A DNA stretch of 32,000 nt. Origin: Patescibacteria group bacterium. Lineage in GTDB: Bacteria; Patescibacteriota; UBA1384; XYA2-FULL-43-10. The translations under genes and the position numbers were made by a program. Positions 4,297 through 26,954 of the stretch are shown here, one piece after another; the stretch's first letter is position 1; the number at the start of each line of letters is the position of its first letter. The notes beneath the pieces were generated by a model. The model saw nothing but the letters and a program-made list of their open reading frames with translations, was not told where the DNA came from and did no database searches. The stretch covers positions 30,001 to 62,000 of the forward strand of contig JBAYVT010000004.1 in NCBI GenBank assembly GCA_041674405.1, in the 5' to 3' direction.

Positions 4297-4324
4297 TTGA
4301 CAGAATCTTCAAAAGTTTTATAAT
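4297..4324 (+). promoter_or_regulatory. Sigma70-type promoter TTGACA-N16-TATAAT
   Basis: TTGACA at 4297-4302 and TATAAT at 4319-4324, about 30 nt upstream of the 4354 start. Confidence 0.6.
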
Positions 4325-7953: not shown

Positions 7954-8034
7954 AAGTGGTTGTTTTGTACAAAATGTTGTATCATGTTATCAGATACATT
8001 GATAGATGTCCTTGTTTATAAAAGGTGAGGGGAT

Positions 8035-9767: not shown

Positions 9768-9776
9768 TTAGTTAAA

Positions 9777-12283: not shown

Positions 12284-12300
12284 CGCATCAATAATGTTAT

Positions 12301-12329
12301 TTGACAAGCAAAAAATATGTGCTTAAAAT
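12301..12329 (+). promoter_or_regulatory. Sigma70-type promoter TTGACA-N17-TAAAAT for the last pilin-like gene
   Basis: TTGACA at 12301-12306 and TAAAAT at 12324-12329. A GGAGGG SD precedes the ATG at 12367. Confidence 0.6.
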
Positions 12330-12366
12330 TGTTCTTAGTGGACTTAAATAATAAGACGGAGGGCGA

Positions 12367-12684
12367 ATGAATTTAGTAGAAAAGGCGTACGCGGTTAGCA
12401 AAAACCAGTGGACTGGTTTGCTAAACCCAACAGCCACCACTTCGGGAAACTGGCAAGATATTGTTAATAACGTTATTAACATTGTCTTGATGGTAGCTGG
12501 TGCATTAGCGGTTATTTATCTAATCTATTCTGGCATTCTCTACATTACTGCGGCAGGTAATCCGGATTCAGCCAAAAAGGGTCAGCAAGGCATTATCAAT
12601 GCTGTGATCGGTATTGTGATCATCGTTGCCGCATTCTTCATCGTCAGAGCAGCAATGGGTCTTGCTGGGCAAGCTACAAAATAA
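12367..12684 (+). CDS. VirB2/TrbC-like (T4SS-pilin-like) small membrane protein 3, with its own promoter
   Basis: ALAVIYLIYSGILYITAAGNPDSAKKGQQGIINAVIGIVIIVAAFFIV is the cleanest copy of the shared module. Confidence 0.65.
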   Translation: MNLVEKAYAVSKNQWTGLLNPTATTSGNWQDIVNNVINIVLMVAGALAVIYLIYSGILYITAAGNPDSAKKGQQGIINAVIGIVIIVAAFFIVRAAMGLAGQATK

Positions 12685-12694
12685 GATCAATTGG

Positions 12695-14464: not shown

Positions 14465-14554
14465 GGTGAGGTGCTAGAGTGGTTGAATAGGCCGGTCTCG
14501 AAAACCGGTATGCCCGCAAGGGTATCGTGGGTTCAAATCCCACCCTCACCGCCA
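14465..14554 (+). tRNA. tRNA-Ser (anticodon CGA)
   Basis: GGTGAGG..CCGGT-CTCGAAA-ACCGG..long variable arm..GTGGG-TTCAAAT-CCCAC-CCTCACC-G-CCA. Confidence 0.92.
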
Positions 14555-14646
14555 TCCCACGTTGCCCGATTTATCGGGCTATGCGGGATGAAGAACAGAA
14601 TTTGAACGGGAAGGGGTCGGGAAACGGGAGTTTCCCGCTTCGGAAA
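14555..14646 (+). repeat. tRNA-Ser-trailing conserved element, copy 2
   Basis: tcCCACGTtGCCCGATTtaTCGGGCTATGCGG...ATTtgAACGGGAAGGgGTCGGGAAA (block 2 at 14600-24), then the hairpin GGGAAAC-GGGA-GTTTCCC. It parallels 2620-2727 on the minus strand. Confidence 0.7.
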
Positions 14647-14675: not shown

Positions 14676-14726
14676 TGTCTCGAGGAACCGAGAGGCGAAG
14701 CGCTCGAAATCCCACCCTCACCGCCA
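14676..14726 (+). pseudogene. Degenerate duplicate of the 3' half of tRNA-Ser(CGA)
   Basis: A perfect 20-nt repeat, AAATCCCACCCTCACCGCCA, occurs at 14707-14726 and at 14535-14554. Upstream, GTCTCGA echoes the anticodon-loop region. There is no 5' half and no T-stem partner. Confidence 0.75.
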
Positions 14727-14751
14727 TTTGACGAGTTTATATCTCCAACTG

Positions 14752-14784
14752 AAAAAGCCGGCGCAAACTTCACGCCGACTTTTT
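14752..14784 (-). terminator. Hairpin terminator downstream of the GC-rich methyltransferase gene
   Basis: AAAAAGCCGGCG (14752-63) pairs with CGCCGACTTTTT (14773-84) with one mismatch. A/T runs on both sides make it potentially bidirectional. Confidence 0.65.
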
Positions 14785-14797
14785 AGTTCCTCACCTC

Positions 14798-15517
14798 CTA
14801 TTTCACCGCGCAGATTATGTCGTAGTTGGGCTCTGCCGCAAGGTTTGGTCTCAAGACTCTCTTCACCCCTAGCCCCCGAACAAGCCCTTCCATTTCGTTT
14901 GGCGCAAGCAAATACGAAAGTGAGCGGTTCTGGAACTGCTGCCCGCGAACGATACCCTTCCCCTCTATCACCCGCGTTCGCCGAAACCAATCGTGGGTGA
15001 TGTCAACCGCCATGCTGTAGCCGAGGAAGGAAAGGTTCAGGTGACCACCACCCTGATCAATCTCGTGCTGTGAGATCGTGTCGAGGTAGAGAAGTCCGCC
15101 GCTTTTTAAGGCAGCGAGCATTTCTTTTAGGCTTCTTCCGATCTCCATGCGACACCGACCAGGATCGAAGATATCGCCCTTCCCCCAGCCCCCCACGTTT
15201 GTTAAGCTGTTACCTCTGCATATCACAGCGTCGAAAGTCCTGGCCAGCTCGCGAGCCTTCCGCCAATCCAGTTTGCGAAACTCAATCGCCGGATGGCTGT
15301 GGCGAGCAGTGGCGATGTCGATCATCTCTTCGTCCGCATCGATCCCGACCCCTGTAAAGCCGCGCTCTGCTAAACCGTGCAGCACATGCCCACCGCCGCA
15401 TCCACACTCGATGATTGTTCTGACGCCGAGTTCCCGCAGTAAATCCGCTAGTTCTTTGATGAACTCCGAGCCATACATCAGCTCGGACAAGATTACCCAC
15501 TGCTGTGACAGAGTCAC
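14798..15517 (-). CDS. Class I SAM-dependent methyltransferase, glycine/sarcosine-N-methyltransferase-like (GC-rich)
   Basis: Motif I is IIECGCGGGHVLHGLAERGF. FDAVICRGNSLTNV and LKSGGLLYLD resemble the remembered GNMT-type post-I/III motifs. The GTG start overlaps the upstream stop (GTGA). Confidence 0.75.
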   Translation of the reverse strand: MTLSQQWVILSELMYGSEFIKELADLLRELGVRTIIECGCGGGHVLHGLAERGFTGVGIDADEEMIDIATARHSHPAIEFRKLDWRKARELARTFDAVICRGNSLTNVGGWGKGDIFDPGRCRMEIGRSLKEMLAALKSGGLLYLDTISQHEIDQGGGHLNLSFLGYSMAVDITHDWFRRTRVIEGKGIVRGQQFQNRSLSYLLAPNEMEGLVRGLGVKRVLRPNLAAEPNYDIICAVK

Positions 15518-16158
15518 GTGCCTTCAACCTCCTTCATCATGATCACTCGCAGGCCTCCTGTTGCTGCGTCCTCCGGAATAAAATCCGGAGCTATCCAGAG
15601 AAACTTACCCCCAAGCCGGTAGTAGAAGGCCAAGAGCGGGTCGAGGCAAAGTTCGCGATCAGTAGGAAAGGGCCCTCCCGCGAGATGTCGATCTATCGCC
15701 TCCTTGAACGCGGGCCTTTGTCTAATCCCTTCTCTTGGGCTTCCATTGTAGGAGGCCGGCCTCCCGTCAGCTATTCCAAGGATGCAACCATCCGACTTAA
15801 TTCGACCAAGCATAGCTTGCGCCAGTAATACTGCTGTGCGGGCATTGCGATACTTATCCTGCACGTTGAGGTTGTAGACGAAGGCACAATCATGGCTGGT
15901 CTCCATCGGCATCGTCGAGAACTCCCCAAAGTTTCTGGAAAATGCTTTGGGATCACTCGGATAAAACCGGGAGTAGGAAAAGCAGATTTTCCCAACCAGC
16001 TCCCCGTCCAGTCTGGCCCCAAGCATGATGTGTCCAAGGCGCAGCCGCTGCTCGATCAGCTCACGGCTGGCGCGCAGATAGGGCGGGAACGACAGGTTCT
16101 CGTCTTCGAGGATTTCGTCCAAATCCTCGAAAGACAACTCGACTATCATCGTGTCCAT
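15514..16158 (-). CDS. GNAT-fold acyltransferase-like protein (GC-rich), start revised
   Basis: The track ORF runs to 16299, but its first 47 codons lie in the AT-rich spacer. The ATG at 16158 (MDTMIVELSFEDL) is preceded by AAAGGAGG. The central VYNLNVQDKYRNARTAVLLAQAM resembles a GNAT beta4-alpha3 region. The family assignment is tentative. Confidence 0.5.
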   Translation of the reverse strand: MDTMIVELSFEDLDEILEDENLSFPPYLRASRELIEQRLRLGHIMLGARLDGELVGKICFSYSRFYPSDPKAFSRNFGEFSTMPMETSHDCAFVYNLNVQDKYRNARTAVLLAQAMLGRIKSDGCILGIADGRPASYNGSPREGIRQRPAFKEAIDRHLAGGPFPTDRELCLDPLLAFYYRLGGKFLWIAPDFIPEDAATGGLRVIMMKEVEGT

Positions 16159-16193
16159 AATGTCTCGCCTCCTTTGGATTCTTCGAAACAAAA

Positions 16194-16223
16194 AATTATC
16201 CCTCCGTCTTGGCAGGATGTCAA
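16194..16223 (-). promoter_or_regulatory. Sigma70-type promoter TTGACA-N18-ATAATT for the GC-rich two-gene operon
   Basis: On the minus strand, TTGACA is the complement of 16218-16223 and ATAATT is the complement of 16194-16199. The promoter lies in the divergent spacer shared with the TrmB-like regulator gene. Confidence 0.55.
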
Positions 16224-16308
16224 TAATTTGCACAGGGATTTTGTTAGTGATATCCTTTAATCGAGATTGTTTTATTAAAATGTTGTCAAAGTTTTTCACA
16301 AATAAGTT

Positions 16309-17067
16309 ATGAACTTACAGGCAATTTTAGAGGAATTCGGGCTTTCCAAACGCCAGGCCAGCGTCTATCTGGCAAATTTGGAGTTGGGAGAGGCGAGTGT
16401 TGCTCAAATTGCCGAAAAAGCTCAAATCGAGCGTACTGGCACCTACTACGTTATAGAATCGCTGTGCGGCAAAGGCCTTATCGTCGAGATTGAGCGAGGC
16501 AAAAAAGATTTTTTTGTCGCCATCGAGCCAAAAGAGCTGCTATCAATTGCAAAAAGAAGAGAAAAGTTGATATTAGAACACCTGCAGGAATTTGAGGCCT
16601 TTTCGAATATCTCCTCGGAGAAACCTCATGTCCGCCTTTACACCGGAATCAACGGAATAAAAACGGTTTTTTTAAAAACAATTGAGAAACCAAAAATACA
16701 GATGCTGGGCTTTTCACCCTACAGAACAGCCGAGAAAACCGCCTGGTACAACGGCAAAGAGTATGTGGAATGGGGTTTGGACTATATCAGGAAACGAGCC
16801 TCCAGAAGGATTTTCGCTCGCACCATCGCTGAAGATACACCGGAATCACAAGCGCGCAAGGGGAGAGACGCTGAAGAACTGCGGGAAACACGTCTGGTTC
16901 CACACGATAAATTCCTGTTCACCAACGAAATAGCCATCCTCGACGATTGGGTCGCGGTAATTTCATACAAAGAGATGGCTGCGCTTGTAATTGAATCAAA
17001 AGAATTTACTAAAACAATGAGATCAATTTTTGAACTAGCATGGGATGGAGCGGAAAAATATTTGTAG
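16309..17067 (+). CDS. TrmB-family transcriptional regulator
   Basis: The N-terminal winged helix, LEEFGLSKRQASVYLANLELGEASVAQIAEKAQIERTGTYYVIESLCGKGLI, is typical of TrmB-type regulators. Confidence 0.75.
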   Translation: MNLQAILEEFGLSKRQASVYLANLELGEASVAQIAEKAQIERTGTYYVIESLCGKGLIVEIERGKKDFFVAIEPKELLSIAKRREKLILEHLQEFEAFSNISSEKPHVRLYTGINGIKTVFLKTIEKPKIQMLGFSPYRTAEKTAWYNGKEYVEWGLDYIRKRASRRIFARTIAEDTPESQARKGRDAEELRETRLVPHDKFLFTNEIAILDDWVAVISYKEMAALVIESKEFTKTMRSIFELAWDGAEKYL

Positions 17068-17119
17068 CCCAACGGATATTTCAGTTAATAATTTTTGACT
17101 TGCAATTTTGATTTTTGAG

Positions 17120-17599
17120 CTATTTAAGTTGGAGCGCGTCTCCAATTTTTATATTATTTTGAGAAACTATACCCGCCTTAAGTTCCAGAACCTCATTTAT
17201 ATCCGAATCCGGAACATAATTCGTAAGCTTATCTTCTGGCTCAACCGGAACATTTTCAACGATGCCTTTTACAATCCAGTCCTTCATCCAGACAATATCG
17301 ATTGGAAATTTCATCCCCTTCATCCAGAATGAGGGTTTGCCATAATTGTCAAAATAAAACAGCATCCCCTCATTGTCTTTTATATGATCGAATGCGGACA
17401 ATCCCATTTCGCGTTCAATTTGAGTCCTTGCCTCATAAACACTAAGCTCATGCCCCGAGATCACGATATCACGTTTGTTTAATTCGGTTTCGGCAATATT
17501 TTTAGGAGTCCTGATTTTCAAAAGAACAAAAGCAACGATCGATAACATAATTACGATCCATAAAATTCCTGAGGTTTTTGTATGTGTTGGGCGAGACAA
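17120..17599 (-). CDS. DUF192-family protein with an N-terminal membrane anchor
   Basis: MLFYFDNYGKPSFWMKGMKFPIDIVWM matches the remembered DUF192 core. The N-terminal TM is ILWIVIMLSIVAFVLL. Confidence 0.75.
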   Translation of the reverse strand: MSRPTHTKTSGILWIVIMLSIVAFVLLKIRTPKNIAETELNKRDIVISGHELSVYEARTQIEREMGLSAFDHIKDNEGMLFYFDNYGKPSFWMKGMKFPIDIVWMKDWIVKGIVENVPVEPEDKLTNYVPDSDINEVLELKAGIVSQNNIKIGDALQLK

Positions 17600-17644
17600 A
17601 GGTCGCTACGCTCCAAATTACAATGATAAATTACAAACAAATTG

Positions 17645-17680
17645 TAAATCAAAAAATCACAATGCTCAAATTGTGATTTT
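17645..17680 (-). terminator. Rho-independent terminator after jag
   Basis: AAAATCACAAT (17653-63) pairs with ATTGTGATTTT (17670-80) in an 11-bp stem. A T-run follows on the minus strand. Confidence 0.75.
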
Positions 17681-17714
17681 CCATGTCTAATTCGTGTGTT
17701 TAATCTTGTAGTTC

Positions 17715-18227
17715 CTACTGCTTGTTTGATTTTTTCGGTTTAATTACAATTCTTCTGTCTTGGCCGGTACCGATTGATTCTGATTCTACATCGGCAATAT
17801 TGGAAACAACCATGTGCACAATCCTTCTTTCGTATGAAGACATTGGGCTTAGCTCTTCGGATATTCCCGTGGCAAGCACTTGAAATGCTTTTTCCCGTGC
17901 ATGTTTTTTGGTGCCTTCAATCCTTTTGTCGCGATATCCGTCTATGTCAATAACCAGAGATTTGTTGTGCTGAGCGATTTCCTTTCCCATTATTGAGCGC
18001 AGAATATGCTGAAAAGACTCCAAGCCCTCCCCCCCTTTGCCAATTAGCAGAGCCGGCGATTCTAGGTTGAAGTTCATAAAAACTATATTGTCTTTAAATG
18101 TAACAATGGGATCAGCATCAAAGCCCATTAGGTCTAGGAGATTTTTTGAGTTGTCTTTAATTTTTAGGATCAATTCTTCCATTCTTGTCCTTCGATTTAA
18201 GTCTGCTGCAAAAGAATAATACCGCAC
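17715..18227 (-). CDS. jag: Jag/KhpB-type KH plus R3H RNA-binding protein
   Basis: The R3H region is MSSYERRIVHMVV. Its position directly after yidC is canonical. The start is uncertain: GTG at 18227 or ATG at 18182. Confidence 0.8.
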   Translation of the reverse strand: MRYYSFAADLNRRTRMEELILKIKDNSKNLLDLMGFDADPIVTFKDNIVFMNFNLESPALLIGKGGEGLESFQHILRSIMGKEIAQHNKSLVIDIDGYRDKRIEGTKKHAREKAFQVLATGISEELSPMSSYERRIVHMVVSNIADVESESIGTGQDRRIVIKPKKSNKQ

Positions 18228-18256
18228 CCACCCAATTGAATCAATGCCCGTGCCGG

Positions 18257-19141
18257 CTATTTCTTTTCGCGTATGGTAATCGACACGCCTTTTTTCTTGT
18301 CCTGTTTATCAAGCCGGCCCTGCATTACCTTTGTCATTAAGTCTTTTTTTGCTGGTTTTTCGGCTTTATTTTCTTTGGGTTCATCAATCTGTACAGGACT
18401 TAATTCAGCCGAATTTTCGTTTTTAGTTTTTAGTTTTTCGTTCCGGATGTTTGTATTCACGTAATACTGCTGGCCGATGCTAAAAATTGTAGTGATAATC
18501 CAGTAAATCACCAAAGCCGCGGGAACAGACCGGGCGATGAAAATGGTGATTAGGGGAAAAAGAAATATCATCTGTTTGTTCATCATTGCCATCGGATCAT
18601 TCTTTTGTGTAGGAGAAGCCTTTGGAAGAGTCATCCACGAAAGTAACATCTGCGTGGCACCGGCAATAATCGGCAGAATCCACAAATCGTGCAGTGCCAG
18701 ATTAAACCCTAAAAATACCGTGTGCAAGGCTTCTGGGCGCGGCGTAAAGGAGTACAAAAGGTCATACCGAGAAGTATCAAGGCCGATTTGGAATACTTGA
18801 TATAGAATAATGATGATTGGAAGCTGAATTAAGAGAGGCAAACACGAGCCCCAAGGGGACGTCCCCTCTTCTTTGTAGAGCCTCATCATTTCCTCATTCA
18901 TTTTTTTCGGATCATCTTTGTGTTTCGTCCTGATTTCATTCATCTTTGGCTGAACCGCTTGCAGCTTTACACTCGCTTTTGCCGCCTTAAGGGAGCTTGG
19001 CAACAGAATCAAACGGATAATGATCGTTAAAATGACAATAGACCAACCCACAGAACCGCCCGTTGCCCATGCGAAAAAGATTAGAAGATTATAAAACGGA
19101 ATATAGAGCACTGCTCTAAAAATTTCTTTAATAAAACTCAT
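18257..19141 (-). CDS. yidC: Membrane protein insertase YidC
   Basis: GWSIVILTIIIRLILLPSSLKAAKASVKLQAVQPKMNEIRTKH is the YidC/Oxa1 core, and the protein is multi-TM. Confidence 0.9.
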   Translation of the reverse strand: MSFIKEIFRAVLYIPFYNLLIFFAWATGGSVGWSIVILTIIIRLILLPSSLKAAKASVKLQAVQPKMNEIRTKHKDDPKKMNEEMMRLYKEEGTSPWGSCLPLLIQLPIIIILYQVFQIGLDTSRYDLLYSFTPRPEALHTVFLGFNLALHDLWILPIIAGATQMLLSWMTLPKASPTQKNDPMAMMNKQMIFLFPLITIFIARSVPAALVIYWIITTIFSIGQQYYVNTNIRNEKLKTKNENSAELSPVQIDEPKENKAEKPAKKDLMTKVMQGRLDKQDKKKGVSITIREKK

Positions 19142-19279
19142 TAAGTTCCTTATTGTTACATTGCTAAATGGTTAAATTGTTATTTTTCAAGTTTGTCATT
19201 TGTATATTTTATCAAGTAATTTATTGATCGCGGAAGCTTTTGTAAGTGCTCCAAAAATAAAACAATTTAACAATGCGGG

Positions 19280-19513
19280 CTATTTGACTTCGTCAATTCC
19301 GCCACCACTCCATGGATTACATCTTAAAACGCGCCAAAACGCAAGTGCAAGGCCCTTTCCGGCCCCGTATTTCATCACCGCTTGGCGGCCATATTCCGAA
19401 CAATGCGGAGTATATTTGCAATATCCGCCTGAAAATCTTGCCGAAAACCAACCGGTGTCAGGAGACAATGTCCGCTGATATAATTCAATAATTTTTATAA
19501 CAATCTTTTTCAT
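19280..19513 (-). CDS. yidD: Membrane protein insertion efficiency factor YidD
   Basis: YQRTLSP...CKYTPHCSEYGRQAVMKYG...LRCNPWSGGGIDEV is the YidD signature. It has an ATGA overlap with rnpA. Confidence 0.9.
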   Translation of the reverse strand: MKKIVIKIIELYQRTLSPDTGWFSARFSGGYCKYTPHCSEYGRQAVMKYGAGKGLALAFWRVLRCNPWSGGGIDEVK

Positions 19514-19851
19514 TTAATTACATTTGCTCTTTTTAAGCCCTCTATTATCTGTAGTTTAATTTTTCCGTAATTATATGGCAGGGGAAAGTCTTGTTTAACC
19601 ATAATCGCTACATCAAAGCCTTGGTTTATCTGTGGCCAAGTTTCTTGCACAATGGCTCTCAGGCGTCTTCGAAGGGCATTGCGGCGGCTTGCCCTTTTAT
19701 CAATCTTGTTTGAAACAACAAATCCAAACCGGGATTTGTCCCGCCCCTTTGCAACACGAAAAACGAGGTTTTCTGTATAAATCGGTTTGGATGATTTAAA
19801 AATCTTCTGAAAATCTTTATTGGTTCGAAGTCTGTTTTGTTTTGGAAGCAT
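19510..19851 (-). CDS. rnpA: Ribonuclease P protein component
   Basis: MLPKQNRLRTNKDFQKIFK...FGFVVSNKIDKRASRRNALRRRLR is the RnpA pattern. Confidence 0.88.
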   Translation of the reverse strand: MLPKQNRLRTNKDFQKIFKSSKPIYTENLVFRVAKGRDKSRFGFVVSNKIDKRASRRNALRRRLRAIVQETWPQINQGFDVAIMVKQDFPLPYNYGKIKLQIIEGLKRANVIK

Positions 19852-19879
19852 GAGCCGATTTTAGCACAAATATGAGCTT

Positions 19880-19924
19880 AATACGAATAAACACAGAGAC
19901 AGCCACCTCGATGCGAGATGGCTG
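19880..19924 (-). terminator. Hairpin terminator downstream of the GC-rich secreted-protein gene
   Basis: CAGCCACCTCG (19900-10) pairs with CGAGATGGCTG (19914-24) in an 11-bp stem with one mismatch. A T-rich tract follows on the minus strand. Confidence 0.5.
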
Positions 19925-19953
19925 CCCTGAAAGTCCCTCCAGGTTGTTGGTCG

Positions 19954-20466
19954 CTAGAAGCGGCCGATGTTGTACTGGGCGCAGACGCTGTCGTCCTGCC
20001 CATCCACGCAGAGCCGGTATAGCCCTGATGCGCGGCCGGACTTCCAACAGAACTGGATGGTCTGGTAGGGCTTGCACCCCGCCTGGTATTTCACATACCC
20101 CATCGCATCCAGGCCCCTCACGATCTTGACCGGCGGCGTCGTAACGTCCGCCCGCCACGGGTCGTATCCCCACACACGAAGACACGAATTCCAGGGGTTG
20201 ACCTCGGCGCCGAGCCTCAGCCGCTCATTGTCCGTCCTGGCAAGCCAGAGGACATCGGCCGGCTTGTACCCTGCCATCAGCAGAGTGTAGGGCCCGTCCA
20301 CCTGCTGTTCGGCGTAGAACCACGCCGAACCGCGAGCAACGGTCACGGTTGCAGCCGTGTACTCGCCTTGGACGAACACACCCGGAGACACCGACACCTC
20401 GTCCGCGAAAGCGACCGAGACGGACAAAGCCAACATTGCGATCAGAACAGCGGTAATAGCGCGCAT
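19954..20466 (-). CDS. Secreted Cys/Trp-rich hypothetical protein (GC-rich)
   Basis: The signal peptide is MRAITAVLIAMLALSVSVAFA/DE. The mature protein is about 149 aa with 5 Cys. An AGGAGG SD lies 6 nt before the ATG. No family was recognised. Confidence 0.65.
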   Translation of the reverse strand: MRAITAVLIAMLALSVSVAFADEVSVSPGVFVQGEYTAATVTVARGSAWFYAEQQVDGPYTLLMAGYKPADVLWLARTDNERLRLGAEVNPWNSCLRVWGYDPWRADVTTPPVKIVRGLDAMGYVKYQAGCKPYQTIQFCWKSGRASGLYRLCVDGQDDSVCAQYNIGRF

Positions 20467-20512
20467 GTTTGCGCCTCCTGTACCCGAAATTGTACGCCTG
20501 ATACCGACAATT

Positions 20513-20541
20513 CAATATATACTATTTCTCATCAATTGTCA
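20513..20541 (-). promoter_or_regulatory. Sigma70-type promoter TTGACA-N17-TATATT for the GC-rich secreted-protein gene
   Basis: On the minus strand, TTGACA is the complement of 20536-20541 and TATATT is the complement of 20513-20518, with an exact 17-nt spacer. Confidence 0.6.
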
Positions 20542-20553
20542 ATCTTCTCGAGC

Positions 20554-20580
20554 ACAAAAAAAGAACCCGTGGGGCTCCCA
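20554..20580 (-). terminator. Rho-independent terminator after rpmH
   Basis: The minus-strand RNA GAGCCC-CAC-GGGTTC includes a G-U pair that only works on this strand, followed by TTTTTTT. Confidence 0.6.
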
Positions 20581-20646
20581 AATACATGATTAAATGGTTA
20601 TATTATTATTCTCAACAATTTAGCAATACAGCAATTTAGCAATTTA

Positions 20647-20784
20647 TTAGGCTGAAAGTTTCGCTCTGCCTTTCGCTCGGCGGTTTGCAAGAACATTTCT
20701 GCCGGCACGAGAAGCCATGCGCGAGAAAAACCCGTGTTTCTTTGCCCTTCTTCTTTTGTTTGGTTGGTATGTGCCTTTTTTCAT
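20647..20784 (-). CDS. rpmH: 50S ribosomal protein L34
   Basis: [45 protein letters not shown] is 45 aa. The track ORF (to 20940) is an upstream read-through extension. Confidence 0.92.
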
Positions 20785-20974
20785 AAGATCATTCTTCAAA
20801 AATAAAAACACCGAAATCGTGTTTGACTTAAGTAAAGTACCATAATTAATAGTTAAAGTCAACGATTTAGAGATAGTGGCTTTGCCCAGTGAAGAGCCCG
20901 AAACTGAACGAAGTGAATTTTGGAGTGTCTTCACGGACAAAGCAATACAATATATGCGTGCAGGAGTAAGGGTC

Positions 20975-21021
20975 TTAGGGGGCTAGAGGGCTGCCCCGCA
21001 ATTAAGCCCTCTGCCCCCTAA
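20975..21021. other. Long GC-rich imperfect palindrome/hairpin in the rpmH-dnaA spacer
   Basis: TTAGGGGGC-t-AGAGGGCT (20975-92) pairs with AGCCCTCT-GCCCCCTAA (21005-21). That is 17 bp with a 1-nt bulge and a 12-nt loop. Confidence 0.7.
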
Positions 21022-21114
21022 TATAATGGCTATTTTATTTGTAGGTTTCTCGGCAAGCTCGAAATGACAAGTGTATTTGAGATTGTCTGCCGTACTACGT
21101 CAGACAAGGCATTA

Positions 21115-21139
21115 ATCCCGAGCTTGTCGAGGGATTGAC
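21115..21139 (+). repeat. 25-bp direct repeat, copy 1 (ATCCCGAGCTTGTCGAGGGATTGAC)
   Basis: It is exactly identical to 21210-21234 and contains an internal 6-bp stem, AATCCC/GGGATT. A degenerate inverted relative lies at about 21047-21063. Confidence 0.8.
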
Positions 21140-21209
21140 TCATTCGACTGTGCTCAGAGTCAATCCAAAAACTTTGAGTAATTTATCACCATTATAGCCA
21201 CAGCAATTT

Positions 21210-21234
21210 ATCCCGAGCTTGTCGAGGGATTGAC
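21210..21234 (+). repeat. 25-bp direct repeat, copy 2
   Basis: It is exactly identical to 21115-21139 and sits 6 nt upstream of a perfect DnaA box. Confidence 0.8.
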
Positions 21235-21240
21235 ACACCC

Positions 21241-21249
21241 TGTGGATAA
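21241..21249 (-). promoter_or_regulatory. Perfect DnaA box (TGTGGATAA, complement of TTATCCACA) upstream of dnaA
   Basis: This is an exact 9-mer. The extended context CACCCTGTGGATAAC recurs at about 21587-21602 (inside dnaA) and at 23024-23040 (CACCCTGTGGAAAAC). Confidence 0.75.
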
Positions 21250-21293
21250 CTTGATATAGTTTTTACATAAGATTAATTGCCTTAAGGAACTGA

Positions 21294-22682
21294 ATGGACC
21301 TGGTCGAAATTTGGCGAAATTCATTAGGTGAACTCGAAGTGTCCATATCACGGGCCAATTTCACGACGTGGTTTAAAAATACTTTTATTCTCGACTTCAA
21401 AAAGGGCATTTTAACAATCGGGGTGCCAACTTTTTTTGTTGAGGATTGGCTCAAGAAAAAATATTTGTCCGAAATTGAAAAGGCACTAGCTCACCAGATC
21501 AGCGAGGAAATAAAACAAATAAAGTTTAAGGTTGCCACCCCTTCCACAGAGCAAGTAGTCAGGTTTGAAAAAGACAAAGTTGTCCACACCCCTGTGGATA
21601 ACAAGGAGGCTATTAAACCGACTCACATCGTTCAGACTTTAACAGAAAATTCGACACTAAATGACTATTATAGATTCGACAATTTTGTTGTAGGCTCATC
21701 CAACCAATTGGCATACGCTGCTGCCGACGCGGTTTCAAAAACCCCTGGAATTGTTTACAATCCTTTATTCATTTATGGCGATTCAGGTCTCGGCAAAACT
21801 CACCTAATGCAAGCCATCGGGCATCACGTCCTTTCAAAAAATCCAAACAAACGCATCCTTTATGTTAGTTCGGAAACTTTTGTTAATGATTATATTTCGG
21901 CTGTTGAGTCTGGTTCTGGAAAAGCAAAAGATTTCAAAAACCGTTATCGCAACGTCGATGTCCTTTTAATTGACGATATTCAATTTTTATCAGGCAAAGA
22001 GGGGACACAAGAAGAATTTTTTCACACCTTTAATCATTTACACCAAAACAAGAAACAAGTTGTCCTTACCGCTGACCGCACCCCGAAAGCAATTAAAGGG
22101 CTTGAGAGGCGCTTACAAACGCGTTTTGAGGGTGGAATGGTAGCTGACATCGGATTACCGGATTTAGAAACAAGAGCGGCAATTCTGCGACAGAAAGCCA
22201 AAGTTCAAAACTTTGAAGTGCCGGATGATGTCATCAACCATATTGCAGAAAATATTAAATCATCGGTCCGCGAGCTCGAAGGAGCATTGACTAAAATTTT
22301 TGCATTTTGCAATCTAAAACAATGCGAACCAAATATGTCGGTGGCTTCAGAAATATTAGGTAATATTATTGAAGACAGAAGAACCACTATTACTCCAGAT
22401 CTAATCATCCGAGAAATATGCAAATATTTTCATGTCCCTGTTGAGGATTTACTTGGCAGAAAAAGAAATAAAGAGATTGTGCGGCCAAGGCAGGTTGCAA
22501 TGTATCTTTTGCGCCACGAGGCATCACTTTCTTTTCCGGAAATTGGGCGGGAAATGGGAGGAAAAGACCACACTACTATTATGCATGGATGCACGAAGGT
22601 AGAGAGTGAAATATCACAAGACTTAAGGTTAAAAGATGAAATATCAAATATTAAAAACAAAGTTCATCTGGTAGTTTCTTAA
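21294..22682 (+). CDS. dnaA: Chromosomal replication initiator protein DnaA
   Basis: Walker A is GDSGLGKTHL, followed by LLIDDIQFL, the sensor regions and the C-terminal DNA-binding helix (RPRQVAMYLLR...DHTTIMH). Confidence 0.95.
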   Translation: MDLVEIWRNSLGELEVSISRANFTTWFKNTFILDFKKGILTIGVPTFFVEDWLKKKYLSEIEKALAHQISEEIKQIKFKVATPSTEQVVRFEKDKVVHTPVDNKEAIKPTHIVQTLTENSTLNDYYRFDNFVVGSSNQLAYAAADAVSKTPGIVYNPLFIYGDSGLGKTHLMQAIGHHVLSKNPNKRILYVSSETFVNDYISAVESGSGKAKDFKNRYRNVDVLLIDDIQFLSGKEGTQEEFFHTFNHLHQNKKQVVLTADRTPKAIKGLERRLQTRFEGGMVADIGLPDLETRAAILRQKAKVQNFEVPDDVINHIAENIKSSVRELEGALTKIFAFCNLKQCEPNMSVASEILGNIIEDRRTTITPDLIIREICKYFHVPVEDLLGRKRNKEIVRPRQVAMYLLRHEASLSFPEIGREMGGKDHTTIMHGCTKVESEISQDLRLKDEISNIKNKVHLVVS

Positions 22683-23118
22683 TTTTCCACATCGGTTTGG
22701 AAATAAAAACAGATATTTATTGTAATAACATTAATAATAAGGCCTGTGGATAGTGTGGAAATCTTTAAAAAATGTTTATCACTTTAACAATTTCAATAAA
22801 TATCCTGTGAATTAATTAGTGCACAAGCTGTGTCTTTCCTGTGAAAAAAGCTTTGTAAGTTGTTTATAACTTTTTCAATAAATTTTATCTTTGGAATAAT
22901 TCACATAAATATCCACAATTTTCCACAAGAAAAATCTCAGTTATCCACATATCACAAACAAGAAATAAGAAATAAGAAATGTGGTACTACAAAATTAGCC
23001 ATTAACCAAAACCAAAATTATCCACCACCCTGTGGAAAACATCAAAAGTAAATATCAAGCAAAAACCAATACATTATCTAATTAACCAGCCAATCAATTA
23101 ACTAAGAATAGAGGAAAA
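22683..23118. other. Candidate oriC (dnaA-dnaN spacer with a DnaA-box cluster and AT-rich tracts)
   Basis: Boxes: TTTTCCACA 22683-91; TGTGGATAG 22745-53; TGTGGAAAT 22754-62; ATATCCACA 22909-17; TTTTCCACA 22919-27; perfect TTATCCACA 22941-49; TTATCCACC 23018-26; TGTGGAAAA 23031-39. There is also (AAGAAAT)x3 at 22960-80. Confidence 0.75.
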
Positions 23119-24222
23119 ATGAAAGCGACAATATTACAATCGAATTTTTCAAAAGCAATTAATGTGGTTTCTCGTGTGGTTGGAACCCGCACAACGTTGC
23201 CAGTTTTAAACAATATTCTGCTTTCGATAGATAAAGGAAAAATCAAACTATCGGCAACCGATTTGGAGGTTGCTATCACAACCCAGGTTATCGGAAAAAT
23301 TGATGATTCGGGAAAGGTTACAATTCCAGCGAGACTCTTGTCCGATTTTGTCCACAATAACAGCGATGAGCAGATTTCTATTGAAACAAAAGATCTTTCC
23401 GTAAATTTGAGATCAGACAGATTTGAGGCAACAATCCAAGGTATTGATGCCGATGAATTCCCTACAATCCCCGATATGGACAAAGATGCTTTCTGTGAAC
23501 TTGCCGGGAAAGACTTAATTGATGTACTTAAAAAGGTCACTATATCCGCTGCAAATGATGAAACACGGCCGGTGCTAGCTGGTGTTTATATGAAATTTGA
23601 GGGAAAATCAGCAATTTTTGCTGCCACGGATTCATACAGACTGTCAGAAAAAAAGATTGCCCTTTCCAAGGAAGTAGAAAAAAAAGAAATCATTGTGCCG
23701 GCCCGAACCATGAATGAGCTACTTCGAATTCTTTCCGGTGAAATGGTGGAGAAAGTTAAATTAATCGCAGAAGAAAACCAAATTTCATTTGTGGTTGCCG
23801 ATACCCAGATCGTGTCGAGACTGATTGAGGGCAATTTCCCAAATTACGAACAGATTATTCCGAAGAGCTCGAAAATTAATGTTAAAGCCCCGACAAGCGA
23901 AACTCTTTCTGCTATTAAAATGTCGGCTCTTTTTGCCAAAGACATGGCAAACAACATCAAAATCATATGCAACAAAGATGGTATGACCGTAAAATCGGCA
24001 ACAACCGGCGCCGGATCGACAACATCACATGTGAAGGCAAATGTTTCCGGAGGTGAAATCGAGGTATCATTCAACGCCAGGTATCTTTTGGATGTGATAA
24101 ATATTCTTCCCGATGAAGACATTGTCCTAAGCTTTAATGATGAGGCGTCAGCCGGGGTTATTAAATCGGAAAAAGACAAAGAATTTGTCTATCTCGTCAT
24201 GCCACTAAGGACAGAACAATAA
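23119..24222 (+). CDS. dnaN: DNA polymerase III beta sliding clamp
   Basis: It is 367 aa, sits after dnaA, and has the typical three-domain pattern (PVLNNILL...LSATDLEVAI...; C-terminal YLVMPLR). Confidence 0.93.
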   Translation: MKATILQSNFSKAINVVSRVVGTRTTLPVLNNILLSIDKGKIKLSATDLEVAITTQVIGKIDDSGKVTIPARLLSDFVHNNSDEQISIETKDLSVNLRSDRFEATIQGIDADEFPTIPDMDKDAFCELAGKDLIDVLKKVTISAANDETRPVLAGVYMKFEGKSAIFAATDSYRLSEKKIALSKEVEKKEIIVPARTMNELLRILSGEMVEKVKLIAEENQISFVVADTQIVSRLIEGNFPNYEQIIPKSSKINVKAPTSETLSAIKMSALFAKDMANNIKIICNKDGMTVKSATTGAGSTTSHVKANVSGGEIEVSFNARYLLDVINILPDEDIVLSFNDEASAGVIKSEKDKEFVYLVMPLRTEQ

Positions 24223-24236
24223 TAGGAAATTTCATC

Positions 24237-24342
24237 CACAGAAACTTCACGCAGAAAAGCACAGAAAAACATTCCCGGTAGCCTGTTTCTCCGGAGAGAT
24301 TGGGGTTAAAGGTTCCGTGTGATTCTGTGTAATAATTCTGTG
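24237..24342. repeat. Dyad-symmetric 3+3 array of CACAGAA-type heptamers
   Basis: Forward copies lie at 24237-43, 24250-56 (CGCAGAA) and 24260-66. Reverse copies lie at 24313-19 (TTCCGTG), 24323-29 and 24336-42. All three pairs are symmetric about 24289.5, and the arms match at 20/30 positions. Confidence 0.8.
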
Positions 24343-24358
24343 AGGTAAATACATTGCA

Positions 24359-25420
24359 ATGATATCTCGCTTGAAACTTGAAAACTATCGAAACTACGGC
24401 AAATTTGAGCTTGTCCTCGATAAATCCACTGTTCTTGTCGGCTTGAATGGCGTGGGGAAGACCAACATCCTCGAGGCTGTTGGTCTTTTATCATTTGGCA
24501 GGTCGTTTCGCGAAGAAGACAAGAAAAACTTAGTCAAATTCGATGCAGATTACGCTCGCATTACAGGTGACGAACTTACGCTGTATTTGCAGAAAAATCC
24601 ACGACTTTTAGCCGCGGCCAAGGAGCGCGGAGTCAAAAAAAAGATGTCCGAATTTATCGGCACACTCTTAACAGTCGTGTTTTCGCCCGAAACTATAGAG
24701 ATAATTACCGGCTCGCCGGCCGAGAGGCGCCGCTTTCTTGATGTCATGATCTCTCAGGTTGAGCGGGAATATCTTCTGGCGCTTTCCGTCTACAACAAAG
24801 TCCGTAAACAGCGGAACCACTTATTGCAGCGGATCGGGGCGGGTGAGGCGTCCGAAACCGAGCTAAAATTCTGGGACGGAGAGCTTGTCAAGAGCGCCGA
24901 AATTATCAACGCGAGTAGGCGGGAGGCGGTAGTGTTTATCAATAAAATTTTGCCCGATTTTTACGCCAATATTTCCGGAGAGAAAGGGGAGCAGCCTAAG
25001 GTTGTTTATCACTGCAAATCGGGTGACGATTTGGCTGCGAAACTCGCTGAAAATTGGCGCCGCGAGGTGGCGTATGGAGCGACAATTTACGGCCCACACA
25101 GGGATGATCTCGAGTTCTATCTAGACACGCGCAATATGGCAAATTTTGCCTCGAGAGGCGAGATAAGATCGGCGATTCTGGCGCTCAAAGTCGCCGAACT
25201 CGAATTTTTAGAAAAGCATGTGAACGATCGGGCTGATCGGGAAGAGAAATATGCCTCCCCGATCCTCCTCCTAGACGATATTTTTTCCGAATTTGACCCG
25301 ATTCGCCGCGAGCATTTAGGAGCCCTTATTTTGAAGTATCAATCGCTGATAACAACGACAGAAAAAGCGCACCTATCAGCCGAGCTTCTAAAAAATTCTA
25401 AAATAATTGAGTTAAAATAA
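24359..25420 (+). CDS. recF: DNA replication and repair protein RecF
   Basis: The N-terminus is LKLENYRNY...VLVGLNGVGKTNILEA (Walker A). The signature/Walker B region is ILLLDDIFSEFD. Confidence 0.92.
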   Translation: MISRLKLENYRNYGKFELVLDKSTVLVGLNGVGKTNILEAVGLLSFGRSFREEDKKNLVKFDADYARITGDELTLYLQKNPRLLAAAKERGVKKKMSEFIGTLLTVVFSPETIEIITGSPAERRRFLDVMISQVEREYLLALSVYNKVRKQRNHLLQRIGAGEASETELKFWDGELVKSAEIINASRREAVVFINKILPDFYANISGEKGEQPKVVYHCKSGDDLAAKLAENWRREVAYGATIYGPHRDDLEFYLDTRNMANFASRGEIRSAILALKVAELEFLEKHVNDRADREEKYASPILLLDDIFSEFDPIRREHLGALILKYQSLITTTEKAHLSAELLKNSKIIELK

Positions 25421-25424
25421 TATT

Positions 25425-25697
25425 ATGGACAAGATTGAGAAGTTATTGATGGGTGCTCTCAACAAGAAGGGGCTTGCTGGAGCGGCTACAAGCTCGCATG
25501 CCTGTTTTTTGGCCGAAAAATGGGGAAAGGGGCGGCTCAAAGCCATATCCTGCTCTCGGGGGATTCTGAAGGTCTCTGTGAGCTCATCCGCTGCTGCCCA
25601 GGAACTCTCTATGGACGAAGAAGAATTGCTCTCTCATATCAATGTTAAGATGGGTCGAGAATGCGTTAAGCGTTTACGTATAATCAACTCTGATTAA
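25425..25697 (+). CDS. DUF721 (DciA-like) protein
   Basis: It is 90 aa, sits directly after recF, and GILKVSVSSSAAAQELSMDEEELLSHIN fits the remembered DUF721 pattern. Confidence 0.65.
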   Translation: MDKIEKLLMGALNKKGLAGAATSSHACFLAEKWGKGRLKAISCSRGILKVSVSSSAAAQELSMDEEELLSHINVKMGRECVKRLRIINSD

Positions 25698-25754
25698 ACG
25701 CGAAAGAGCCGCGTTGATCTTGAAGCCCCGCGATTTCCAATCGCGAGGCGTATT

Positions 25755-25780
25755 CAGCCAAAAAAGATTGGCTGATTTTT
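25755..25780 (+). terminator. Rho-independent terminator after the DUF721 gene
   Basis: CAGCCA (25755-60) pairs with TGGCTG (25769-74), followed by ATTTTT. Confidence 0.6.
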
Positions 25781-25860
25781 GGTACCGCAGGGCGAGTGGG
25801 AGAGTGATTTAAGGATATCAAAATTCTAATTGTAAATGTCAAATAATTATCCACAGAACC

Positions 25861-25889
25861 TTGACTTTGGGGCAGTATTGTGGTATATT
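25861..25889 (+). promoter_or_regulatory. Sigma70-type promoter TTGACT-N17-TATATT (with TGg extended -10) for the GC-rich CsgG-like gene
   Basis: TTGACT is at 25861-66 and TATATT at 25884-89. A perfect DnaA box, TTATCCACA (25846-54), lies 6 nt upstream of the -35. Confidence 0.6.
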
Positions 25890-25972
25890 GGAGCGTTCGA
25901 TAATAATCCTTAGGGCGCACAGCTGCGATTAGCGCAGGCGTCCAAGGTACTGATTGTCAGGAGGTGGCAGAC

Positions 25973-26893
25973 ATGCGTCTGTCCACGATAATTGGGTTAG
26001 CTATGATGTTGGTGTCGGGGGCGTTCGCGGGAGAGATCGCAGTCTGCCCGCAGCCTACCCCTCAGAGACTGGCGATCGCGCCGGTCTCTGCCTCGTCCCT
26101 TGGCCAGTTCGAGTGGTGGGTGGACGAAGAGGAGGCGGCCGGCCTGGTCGAGGAGCGAGCCTATGAGGTCGCTCCCTGCATTCTGGCCGCCTACAACATG
26201 GAGCTGGTAGAGCGGAAGATGCTCGGGATCGCAGAGGCCGAGCAGGCCTTGGCAGAGGATCCGTACATGGACCCCACTACCTTCGAGCAGCCTGGCCAGG
26301 GCGTCGGCGCCAACTGGCTCCTGGTGGTTACGGTCACCAGGATGAGCGTGGAGGATAAGTCCGTGGACGTTGAGATCCGCGGCAACTCCTATCACGCTGA
26401 GAAGTCCATGATAACGGTCTGGCTGCAGGCGCGGATCGTCAATGTGGGGACGAAAGTCGTGTCACCCGCGCTATCGATTCGCAAGAACTGCACGATCACG
26501 ACTGACCAGCAGCTCAGCCTGCAGAGCGGCGAGTGGGATCTGGGCGGTGATCAGCGGACGGACATCGTGACCGATGCCGTCTATAAGATCACCGACTCTG
26601 GTCTTGCCGAGCTCTTGGGGCAGCTGCTGCCCAAGCTTGGCATCAGGACTGGGGCGCAAGCCGGATTCCGGTACGACCCGCAGACGGGCGAACGCATTTC
26701 GGTGATTGAGCAGACATACATCTGCCCGAACCCGAGATGCAACCGGATCTCGCCGAAAGGAGCGAACTTTTGCCCCTACTGCGGCGCCAGGTTGGACCGG
26801 CCCTGCGAACCCGCACCGGCAATCGAAAGGGCGCGGCCCTGTGAGCCGCCACCAGCCGCTAACCGCGACAAGGTGAACCACGCCGGCGGATAG
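25973..26893 (+). CDS. Secreted CsgG/LpoB-like-fold protein with a C-terminal zinc ribbon and Pro-rich tail (GC-rich), start revised
   Basis: The ATG at 25973 lies 8 nt after CAGGAGG; the track used a GTG at 25964. The signal peptide is MRLSTIIGLAMMLVSGAFA. MELVERKMLGIAEAEQAL...GANWLLVVTVTRMSVEDK...ITVWLQARIVNVGT parallels the CsgG-family pattern. The zinc ribbon is CPNPRCNRISPKGANFCPYCGARL. Confidence 0.55.
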   Translation: MRLSTIIGLAMMLVSGAFAGEIAVCPQPTPQRLAIAPVSASSLGQFEWWVDEEEAAGLVEERAYEVAPCILAAYNMELVERKMLGIAEAEQALAEDPYMDPTTFEQPGQGVGANWLLVVTVTRMSVEDKSVDVEIRGNSYHAEKSMITVWLQARIVNVGTKVVSPALSIRKNCTITTDQQLSLQSGEWDLGGDQRTDIVTDAVYKITDSGLAELLGQLLPKLGIRTGAQAGFRYDPQTGERISVIEQTYICPNPRCNRISPKGANFCPYCGARLDRPCEPAPAIERARPCEPPPAANRDKVNHAGG

Positions 26894-26917
26894 CCGGCAC
26901 CAAGGAGGAGAAGTACC

Positions 26918-26954
26918 AAAGGAGCGCCCTTAACCGGGCGCTTCCTTTGTGTTT
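26918..26954. terminator. Strong hairpin terminator between convergent genes
   Basis: AAAGGAGCGCCC (26918-29) pairs with GGGCGCTTCCTTT (36-48) with a 1-nt bulge, followed by GTGTTT. Confidence 0.7.

Follow-up and report, generated by a model that had tools for sequence, protein, structure and literature searches.

The 32,000-nt stretch of DNA analysed here (hereafter the window; positions 30,001 to 62,000 of contig JBAYVT010000004.1 from a Patescibacteria group bacterium) harbours three blocks, B1, B2 and B3, whose guanine plus cytosine (GC) content is far above that of the genes around them. Each block is an autonomous transcription unit of foreign-looking composition accompanied by neither an integrase nor a transposase, in agreement with the first-pass annotation of this DNA. 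With moderate confidence we read the blocks as moron-like accessory cassettes drawn from a gene pool that is restricted to ultra-small prokaryotes and persistently high in GC; they would be autonomous accessory units wedged between conserved genes of the origin-proximal core. As far as could be seen, the families to which their products belong exist only in low-GC ultra-small prokaryotes. Their high GC is a long-lived property of the cassette pool and does not record a recent acquisition from some GC-rich host, because the cassettes are GC-rich at every Patescibacteria-like locus that we inspected despite deep divergence.

Composition, expression signals and junctions of the blocks

The 26 native genes of the window average 0.423 in GC (standard deviation 0.028, maximum 0.480) and 0.423 in GC at third codon positions (GC3; standard deviation 0.058), from which the four block genes depart by z scores of 4.3-7.3 for GC and 3.5-6.4 for GC3. 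The two genes of B1, encoding a methyltransferase (GC 0.554, GC3 0.650, z = 4.7) and a GNAT-like acyltransferase (GC 0.544, GC3 0.628, z = 4.3), are less extreme than the single genes of B2 (GC 0.626, GC3 0.795, z = 7.2) and B3 (GC 0.626, GC3 0.792, z = 7.3), which surpass native genes by about 20 points in GC and about 37 points in GC3. The 60-65% GC first proposed for all three blocks applies to B2 and B3 (62.6%) and is too high for B1 (about 55%). In the called frames of the block genes GC3 exceeds GC at first positions (GC1), which in turn exceeds that at second positions (GC2), and no Rfam RNA family lies there; therefore, the blocks are coding sequences. A structured RNA in place of genes is excluded on the same grounds, GC3 being far above GC2 in the frames and Rfam yielding tRNAs alone in the window, as it did in nine related loci. 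Both G and C are raised at third positions (G3 and C3), arginine takes the place of lysine (R/(R+K) 0.69 in the blocks versus 0.31) and the GARP/FYMINK ratio reaches 1.3-1.7 versus 0.72. This combination therefore indicates a generalised GC pressure and not an effect on one codon class, the block proteins themselves bearing its imprint. Translational selection for C-ending codons was excluded, since G3 and C3 rise equally and strongly promoted native genes are not GC-rich; those with consensus promoters, a pilin gene (12367-12684) and an open reading frame (ORF; 4354-4860), have ordinary GC.

The compositional step at the block edges proved as sharp as the first-pass annotation had described it, occurring within about 60 nt. 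When GC was profiled in 60-nt bins, values of 0.45 (bin 16108) and 0.30 (bin 16228) were obtained at the upstream edge of B1 and of 0.53 (bin 20430) and 0.33 (bin 20490) at that of B2, while B3 is entered by a rise from 0.28 (25795) to 0.58 (25915) and left by a drop from 0.62 (26875) to 0.35 (26935). No gradient of GC3 toward the blocks was found in the flanking rnpA, dciA, recF, giant and TrmB genes. Abrupt steps combined with flat flanks fit the insertion of pre-formed DNA.

The expression signals of the blocks were for the most part correctly predicted from the start. This holds for the promoters of B2 (TTGACA-17-TATATT, 20542-20514, 11/12 consensus score) and B3 (TTGACT-17-TATATT with an extended TG, 25861-25889, 10/12), for the AGGAGG found 7-8 nt upstream of every block start codon (in B1 as AAAGGAGG, at about 16167-16174) and for the dedicated hairpin terminators, those of B2 and B3 being called by a consensus scan and that of B1, which the scan did not call, being seen by eye. 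Like these, the B1 promoter is of the near-consensus sigma-70 type, with a different spacing and -10 hexamer: TTGACA-17-GATAAT at 16223-16195 (11/12) instead of an 18-nt spacer followed by ATAATT. The native promoters cited for comparison are also real (4297-4324, 12/12; 12301-12329, 11/12) and belong to the same type as those of the cassettes. Given its A5 and T5 flanks, the B1 hairpin could act in both directions. Around B2, the rpmH, B2 and rnpA genes each have terminator-like or promoter-like signals of their own. Neither target-site duplications nor terminal inverted repeats nor attC-like sites were detected at the flanks of B2 or B3, and transposon-like borders were accordingly rejected for these two blocks.

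The junctions between the blocks and their surroundings are reproducible. The window is part of the 158-kb MEGAHIT contig ERZ27247358:k141_1092591 deposited at ENA, and the same DNA is present in the NCBI metagenome-assembled genome (MAG) "Patescibacteria group bacterium" (proteins MFA7244259 to MFA7244272). Identity across the junctions is 100% in six assembled contigs (L082, L083, L084, L088, L090 and L092). The block genes recur with both flanks in the Logan assemblies of SRR6484325 and SRR22315508, which were retrieved by exact-protein look-up, and further copies of the loci were found in JGI 3300037067 (B2) and in a 151,610-bp contig belonging to an NCBI MAG (B3). The B2 junctions are 100% identical between assemblies by blastn, and the surroundings of B1 and B3 show identical proteins and gene order by exact-protein look-up. 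The agreement spans at least four assemblies built from at least two SRA runs. The coordinates of the blocks and of neighbouring features are compiled in Table 1.

Table 1. Features of the window that are discussed in the text.
Feature	Positions	Strand	Details
tRNA-Ser (anticodon CGA)	14465..14554	+	ARAGORN; Rfam tRNA, 59 bits
tRNA-Ser 3'-end repeat AAATCCCACCCTCACCGCCAT	14535-14555 and 14707-14727	+	21 nt, exact direct repeat
B1 terminator-like hairpin	14752..14784	-	GCCGGCG...CGCCGAC, A5 and T5 flanks; read from sequence
B1 gene 2, class I SAM-dependent methyltransferase	14798..15517	-	239 aa; Pfam
B1 gene 1, GNAT-like acyltransferase	15514..16158	-	214 aa; Pfam below cut-off, homologues
B1 promoter	16167..16223	-	TTGACA 16223-16218, 17-nt spacer, GATAAT 16200-16195
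Palindromic operator-like site TTGTCAAAGTTTTTCACAA	16283..16301	.	8 nt upstream of TrmB start
TrmB-family regulator	16309..17067	+	252 aa, GC 0.445; Pfam TrmB 2.6e-13; divergent from B1
rnpA (RNase P protein), native	19510..19851	-	Pfam Ribonuclease_P
B2 intrinsic terminator	19897..19927	-	14-bp stem, 8 GC pairs
B2 gene, predicted exported protein	19954..20466	-	170 aa; signal peptide VAFA/DEV
B2 promoter	20474..20542	-	TTGACA 20542-20537, 17-nt spacer, TATATT 20519-20514; AGGAGG 20474-20479
rpmH (ribosomal protein L34), native	20647..20784	-	Own terminator-like hairpin 20579-20561
Probable oriC, dnaA-dnaN spacer	22683..23039	.	26-31% GC, 7 DnaA-box-like sites
Perfect DnaA box TTATCCACA	25847..25855	+	5 nt upstream of B3 -35 hexamer
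B3 promoter	25861..25966	+	TTGACT-17-TATATT, extended TG; about 75-nt 5' untranslated region; AGGAGGTG 25959-25966
B3 gene	25973..26893	+	306 aa; N-terminal signal/anchor GAFA/GEI, alpha/beta region, zinc ribbon
B3 intrinsic terminator	26921..26944	+	GGAGCGCCC...GGGCGCTTC; terminator scan
Giant native gene	26976..32000	-	2429 aa in source contig, leaves window; no Pfam match

The three cassettes and their relatives

B1 would be a two-gene operon in which the GNAT-like acyltransferase gene is followed by, and translationally coupled to, the gene for an S-adenosylmethionine (SAM)-dependent methyltransferase, the two frames sharing 4 nt where the GNAT stop meets the GTG start. The methyltransferase matches the Pfam models Methyltransf_25/23/31/11 at 2e-12 to 6e-10 (PF13649 at 48.1 bits with a cut-off of 27, four related models passing too); no NCBIfam equivalog reached its cut-off, all NCBIfam matches lying below. 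The GNAT-like protein scored 19.8 bits with Acetyltransf_1, just under the cut-off of 20.7 (1e-3), and had no sequence match in PDB. We retrieved 15 homologues of it at 39-55% identity, seven of them with a precomputed PF00583 match, and GKICFSY and DGRPxSYNGS are invariant motifs of the family. The products probably acylate and methylate a small molecule or an envelope component.

The GNAT/methyltransferase pair is again divergent from a TrmB gene on the contigs L094 (929 kb) and L096 (196 kb) of two diverged relatives, and the intergenic region is homologous in the three genomes. The promoter is kept as ATTGAC[AT]-N17/18-GATAAT, and perfect palindromes (TTGTTAAAACTTTTAACAA in L094 and TTGTTAAATAATTTAACAA in L096) occur at the position of that of the window, yielding a consensus TTGT[TG]AAA...TTT[AG]ACAA beside the TrmB start. 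We infer from this conservation that the palindrome would serve as an operator through which the divergent TrmB-family regulator controls B1. TrmB is 47-51% identical in amino acids between the window and the two relatives and 62% identical between these; TrmB and the two genes of the pair have therefore diverged together. At four-fold degenerate sites, the GNAT and methyltransferase genes show identities of 0.20-0.33 versus 0.24-0.28 expected by chance among the three genomes, and at this saturated divergence their GC3 is still 0.57-0.65, with 0.35-0.47 in the co-diverged TrmB gene. In L094 and L096 the pair has GC 0.50-0.54 and GC3 0.57-0.63, most neighbours being at GC 0.37-0.42 and GC3 0.30-0.46, and the wider gene context differs from that of the window. 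A GNAT-methyltransferase pair is also present, without TrmB, on a contig of 30% GC (L105 7882-9112, Logan DRR463595) among neighbours of archaeal type (OapB, OapC, PAC2 and ArgRS). The operon thus appears to be common to ultra-small bacteria and archaea.

The first-pass annotation did not mention that B1 abuts the second copy of an exact repeat of the 3' end of tRNA-Ser, which lies 172 nt downstream of the first; no match is expected in shuffled sequences. The copy looks like an att-like scar, that is, an integrase-type footprint and remnant of an integrated element, and as such it would point to an old integrase-mediated event next to B1. The repeat pair encloses 151 nt, with B1 just outside. 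This spacer contains several hairpins and folds better than its shuffles (z = -3.2), with no match to any Rfam family. No third copy that would bracket B1 was found at up to seven mismatches, nor any tyrosine or serine integrase between pilB and DUF192.

B2 separates rpmH from rnpA, two genes that are contiguous in all 22 other loci in which both were detected (0-249 nt between the matched segments, once 513 nt); these loci came from a DnaA search of species genomes and are more distant, none being a sibling locus. B2 is therefore a derived insertion and not ancestral at this site. Its product is an all-beta protein with five cysteines and the C-terminus ...YNIGRF, for which AlphaFold2 returned a model of 13 strands in a meander (predicted local distance difference test score, pLDDT, of 76); it would be constitutively promoted, exported by the Sec pathway and disulfide-containing. 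The protein had no match in Pfam, NCBIfam, the PDB sequences, the PDB folds or the viral folds of BFVD, the Foldseek search with the model giving nothing at E <= 1e-3 and TM-scores of 0.38 or less. A word-indexed search of 5.8 billion clusters returned B2 itself only. Exhaustive HMMER search of 1.84 billion representative proteins, which also brought up low-complexity noise, revealed three true weak relatives (P0007, P0008 and P0010), so that the family comprises four clusters in that set. The relatives share 24-32% amino acid identity, have signal peptides throughout and end in F or W. All their genes are GC-rich (GC 0.57-0.63, GC3 0.70-0.78) among neighbours at GC 0.33-0.45: that of P0007 (L099; GC 0.57, GC3 0.70) lies in surroundings of 0.33-0.37 and has the same layout of TTGACA-17-TATACT promoter, Shine-Dalgarno sequence and hairpin, that of P0008 (L102; GC 0.615, GC3 0.73) is divergent from a TrmB regulator in surroundings of about 0.38, and P0010 (L101) corresponds to two tandem genes (GC 0.61 and 0.63) in surroundings of 0.41. 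When the family was checked for features of outer-membrane barrels, all four members were seen to end in F or W, and the alternating hydrophobic pattern was clear in P0008 only.

B3 lies between dciA and a giant gene whose C-terminal 75 codons mark the site, as the encoded sequence is 67-71% identical in the contigs L093, L103 and L104; the last two were found by scanning JGI metagenomes with this conserved C-terminus. The only database homologue of B3 is P0003 (50% identity), encoded on the JGI contig L093 at 61% GC and adjoining a giant-protein C-terminus that is 71% identical to that of the window in amino acids and 73% in nucleotides; here the terminator stem is kept as well (GAGCGCCCC...GGGCGCTC). 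L103 carries at the same site a 244-aa gene of 63% GC with a signal peptide, a zinc ribbon and the promoter TTGACA-17-TATATT, whose product is 28% identical to B3 over the C-terminal 100 aa (E = 4e-4). In L104 the giant gene and dciA are 66 bp apart and the site is empty. The GC of the B3 relatives is 0.61-0.63. Between the window and L093, nonsynonymous (dN) and synonymous (dS) divergences are 0.45 and about 1.3 for B3, and 0.20 and more than 2.5 for the flanking gene. The dciA/giant-gene locus is therefore a hotspot that can be occupied, replaced or empty, with a fast-evolving occupant. Thus, the intact rpmH-rnpA pair elsewhere and the 66-bp spacer in L104 bear out the view that both B2 and B3 were added to an otherwise conserved order of genes. 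For B1 and B3, homologues of the same composition occupy the same relative positions in relatives, an outcome that the first-pass annotation had itself named as speaking against its interpretation.

The B3 protein would be exported or anchored and very fast-evolving, with its zinc ribbon, supported by weak Pfam matches, preceding a proline-rich tail at the C-terminus. Its AlphaFold2 model was unreliable (pLDDT 46) and was not used, a by-eye impression of a CsgG/LpoB-like N-terminal domain found no tool support and is not claimed, and profile searches of PDB sequences with the B2 and B3 families gave noise only. The perfect DnaA box next to the promoter hints at DnaA-dependent control of B3; no such box precedes the L103 homologue. 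In L103, five or more tandem copies of a unit of about 14 nt resembling CTACTCACTACCAT were observed between dciA and the cassette promoter (2290-2354) and low-complexity repeats (tagatgttag...) on the other flank, both types being absent from the window. B2 and B3 would both be variable, fast-evolving proteins that probably serve at the cell surface or in contact with the host and that relatives gain, lose or exchange for others.

Comparable genes occur more widely. GC-rich genes with near-consensus promoters and no Pfam match recur next to TrmB paralogues in L094, L096, L102 and L104, which suggests a regulator-cassette association in these genomes. The divergent pairs are located at 11336-15336 in L094, 5106-6868 in L096, 5004-6537 in L102 and 10927-12433 in L104; the TrmB paralogues have native low GC and their partners are small. 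The L104 cassette has the promoter TTGACA-17-TACAAT, and weaker ones were scored in L102 (9/12) and L101 (8/12). In a Magasanikbacteria MAG (JBDROX010000003.1; L003 7554-8585), a 343-aa cysteine-rich lipoprotein gene of 59% GC in a genome of 44% GC follows rpmH-rnpA-yidD directly and is served by a 12/12 promoter; it represents another origin-proximal GC-rich cassette, from a different class of the phylum. A Berkelbacteria locus of 37% GC contains a segment of 51% GC (L001 12976-13550) with a short ORF ending in ...GDLGLKIAF, which resembles a beta-strand C-terminus. The segment may be a degraded GC-rich cassette; a hidden Markov model of the B2 family gave no match there.

A Shine-Dalgarno-like motif (AGGAGGTGA, GGAGG or AAGGAGG) was also noticed 0-35 nt past the stop codon and before the terminator, with no ORF after it, in all three cassettes of the window (14787-14800, 19937-19941 and 26903-26909) and in two relatives (L093 at about 857-866, L099 at about 3142-3170), versus 2 of 23 native genes. 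It may simply reflect GC-rich 3' untranslated regions.

The origin-proximal setting proposed for the blocks is confirmed by the gene order, with rpmH-[B2]-rnpA-yidD-yidC-jag on one side and dnaA, a spacer and dnaN-recF-dciA-[B3] on the other, and by the seven DnaA-box-like sites of the dnaA-dnaN spacer, a further box being located upstream of dnaA (21241-21249). Upstream of the blocks lie the tRNA-Ser(CGA) gene and a type IV pilus/secretion cluster (7078-14359) encoding T4SS_pilin domain proteins and a PilB-like ATPase. The apparent start of the giant gene at 31694 in the ORF listing was rejected, because the frame stays open to 32000 and the truncation merely reflects where the window ends. 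DnaA of the window is at most 48% identical to its best match among 185,579 species-representative genomes, which therefore include no close relative; the best matches are from Berkelbacteria, Doudnabacteria and Magasanikbacteria.

Origin of the cassettes

Most of the horizontal gene transfer (HGT) that can be detected into Patescibacteria comes from within the phylum, and some genes are exchanged with DPANN archaea (PMC12455944). The former fits a cassette pool internal to the phylum and the latter the GNAT-methyltransferase pair on the archaeal-type contig of 30% GC. Several observations weigh against such a pool. The GNAT family is not always GC-rich, as the pair on that contig has GC3 0.14-0.21 and native composition and the homologues P0020-P0025 show an AT-type amino acid composition. 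A GC-rich source of DNA was not found inside the gene pool of Patescibacteria, and over a residence as long as the divergences imply GC3 should have decayed by neutral amelioration. With 4, 4 and 16 clusters the families are tiny, so that their absence from high-GC genomes rests on few contexts, those of a minority of the GNAT homologues among them, and the hosts of L094, L096, L099, L101 and L102 were called Patescibacteria by gene content and GC. The flanks of B2 and B3 lack insertion scars. At B3, the dS of only about 1.3 makes a very GC-rich ancestor with incomplete amelioration conceivable.

The rival that survives best, which we regard as somewhat unlikely, is that the blocks are native, vertically inherited, lineage-specific genes whose GC was raised and is held in place by biased gene conversion or by selection on the transcript, the possible drivers being conversion at recombination-prone loci of surface proteins, mRNA stability and avoidance of AU-directed cleavage. 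The joint rise of G3 and C3 and the shift in amino acids seen here are as predicted by biased gene conversion, which has reportedly been proposed in bacteria (PMC4450053). The persistence of GC-richness across saturated divergence and among family members of 24-32% identity, the rapid evolution of B3 (dN 0.45 versus 0.20) with presence or absence and allele replacement between relatives, the extension of the GC-rich stretch beyond the ORF to the whole transcribed unit, from 5' untranslated region to terminator, and the near-consensus promoter on nearly all cassettes examined, except those of L102 and L101, likewise favour this rival reading. However, conversion tracts should spill into rnpA, dciA, recF, the giant gene and the TrmB gene, in conflict with the abrupt steps, and simple expression-linked selection is at odds with the unremarkable GC of the other genes that have strong promoters. 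Furthermore, B2 splits a near-universal gene pair and cannot be ancestral there, and the 20-point excess is far above the known effects of bacterial gene conversion.

A recent capture from a high-GC donor, such as a diderm and perhaps the host of an episymbiont, followed by wiring to local promoters, was the origin put forward in the first-pass annotation. It now seems quite improbable, since the 5.8 billion clustered and 1.84 billion representative proteins searched, which include the same samples, yielded no homologue from high-GC surroundings, and all the B2 and B3 relatives that we inspected are embedded in low-GC DNA. The block genes do look, in GC1, GC2, GC3, arginine/lysine and GARP content over their whole length, as if they came from long residence at 60-65% GC; in addition, composition changes abruptly at the block edges, conserved gene pairs are split by B2 and B3, and the dS of B3 stays below that of its flank. 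An outer-membrane origin could also be read into the B2 family of exported all-beta meanders with an aromatic last residue, the top-probability Foldseek matches being beta-barrels such as VDAC and FABP. These matches are, however, not significant, and five cysteines are unusual for an outer-membrane barrel. On the other hand, B1 has been kept as a unit with its AT-rich regulator, operator and promoter in three genomes that are saturated at synonymous sites. The deep divergence of the B1 module and of the B2 family therefore speaks against a fresh import that has not yet ameliorated.

It is also conceivable, and in our judgement distinctly unlikely, that Patescibacteria possess a separate class of single-gene GC-rich cassettes, mostly encoding exported ORFan proteins under near-consensus promoters and often located beside TrmB-family regulators, in which high GC is no transfer scar but a functional, actively maintained property of the transcription unit and which move between conserved chromosomal sites independently of recombinases by an undescribed mechanism. 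Such maintenance might result from selection on the stability of the mRNA or from evasion of RNases or toxins directed at AU; the most speculative reason would be that the genes are tuned to a high-GC host in which they are expressed or with which they interact.

Finally, a chimera created during assembly or binning, or the insertion of engineered or contaminating DNA, to which the sharp compositional steps and the textbook consensus of promoters and Shine-Dalgarno sequences might be attributed, has next to no probability left and is set aside as an explanation, because the junctions recur in independent MEGAHIT, Logan, JGI and NCBI assemblies of different SRA runs, diverged relatives hold homologous cassettes at the same site and the promoter type is shared with native genes.

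Significance and comparison with known systems

Compositional islands are routinely read as fresh transfers, with the donor guessed from GC, a shortcut that fails here, where some cassette families also keep their chromosomal position between relatives while staying GC-rich. If general, our findings would define in Patescibacteria a recognisable accessory gene pool made up of exported ORFans and a regulator-linked modification operon, whose genes likely function on the surface of the cell or where it meets its host, the least understood aspect of these uncultured episymbionts. They would also pose a puzzle to base-composition theory, namely how a gene of 500-900 bp keeps a GC3 of about 0.8 in a genome with a GC3 of about 0.4, and call for caution with HGT-detection pipelines and with MAG-decontamination tools that discard such segments.

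Several known systems share traits with the cassettes. A defence-system or phage origin was rejected: matches in PADLOC and PHROGs did not go beyond generic methyltransferase or helix-turn-helix domains and included no phage-specific PHROG, neither B2 nor B3 had a tblastn match among 50,697 phage and 72,556 plasmid records, and a scan of IMG/VR for B3 gave nothing. TrmB operons, known from archaeal sugar regulators (PF01978), resemble B1 in its divergent arrangement and its palindrome conserved in three genomes, but the B1 targets are GNAT-like and methyltransferase genes instead of genes for sugar transport or metabolism. Hotspots of GC-biased gene conversion also combine a local rise in GC3, a GARP shift and fast evolution at variable loci, whereas the magnitude seen here is large and the borders are sharp to 60 nt without any flank gradient. 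Like integron cassettes, those of the window are single-gene units without a recombinase of their own and with an imperfect hairpin after the gene; unlike them, they carry their own promoters and are scattered instead of arrayed, with no IntI or attI, their hairpins being ordinary GC-rich stems with T-runs that share no attC-like sequence, and the window annotation holds no integrase-like ORF.

Genomic islets and tRNA-targeted islands have in common with the cassettes an atypical composition, an accessory distribution and abrupt borders. The 21 nt of the tRNA-Ser 3' end that are exactly duplicated beside B1 form the usual integrase footprint of tRNA-targeted islands, from which B1 differs in lacking an integrase and in lying outside the repeat pair and the 151 nt that it encloses. 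Unlike genomic islets, the cassettes are GC-rich and not AT-rich relative to their host, have no detectable donor lineage and have not ameliorated in composition despite saturated synonymous divergence. The closest parallel is offered by phage morons, defined in HK97 and HK022 as units with their own promoter and terminator and a GC content unlike that of their neighbours (PMC3594210); the cassettes likewise consist of one or two genes with own promoter and terminator and deviant GC and, in B2 and B3, are inserted between genes that are adjacent in relatives. They differ from morons in their location in the origin-proximal core of a chromosome (rpmH/rnpA and dciA), with no phage genes nearby. 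Moron products are often exported or envelope proteins, as in the case of lom and bor of phage lambda, which is a further likeness to the cassettes described here.

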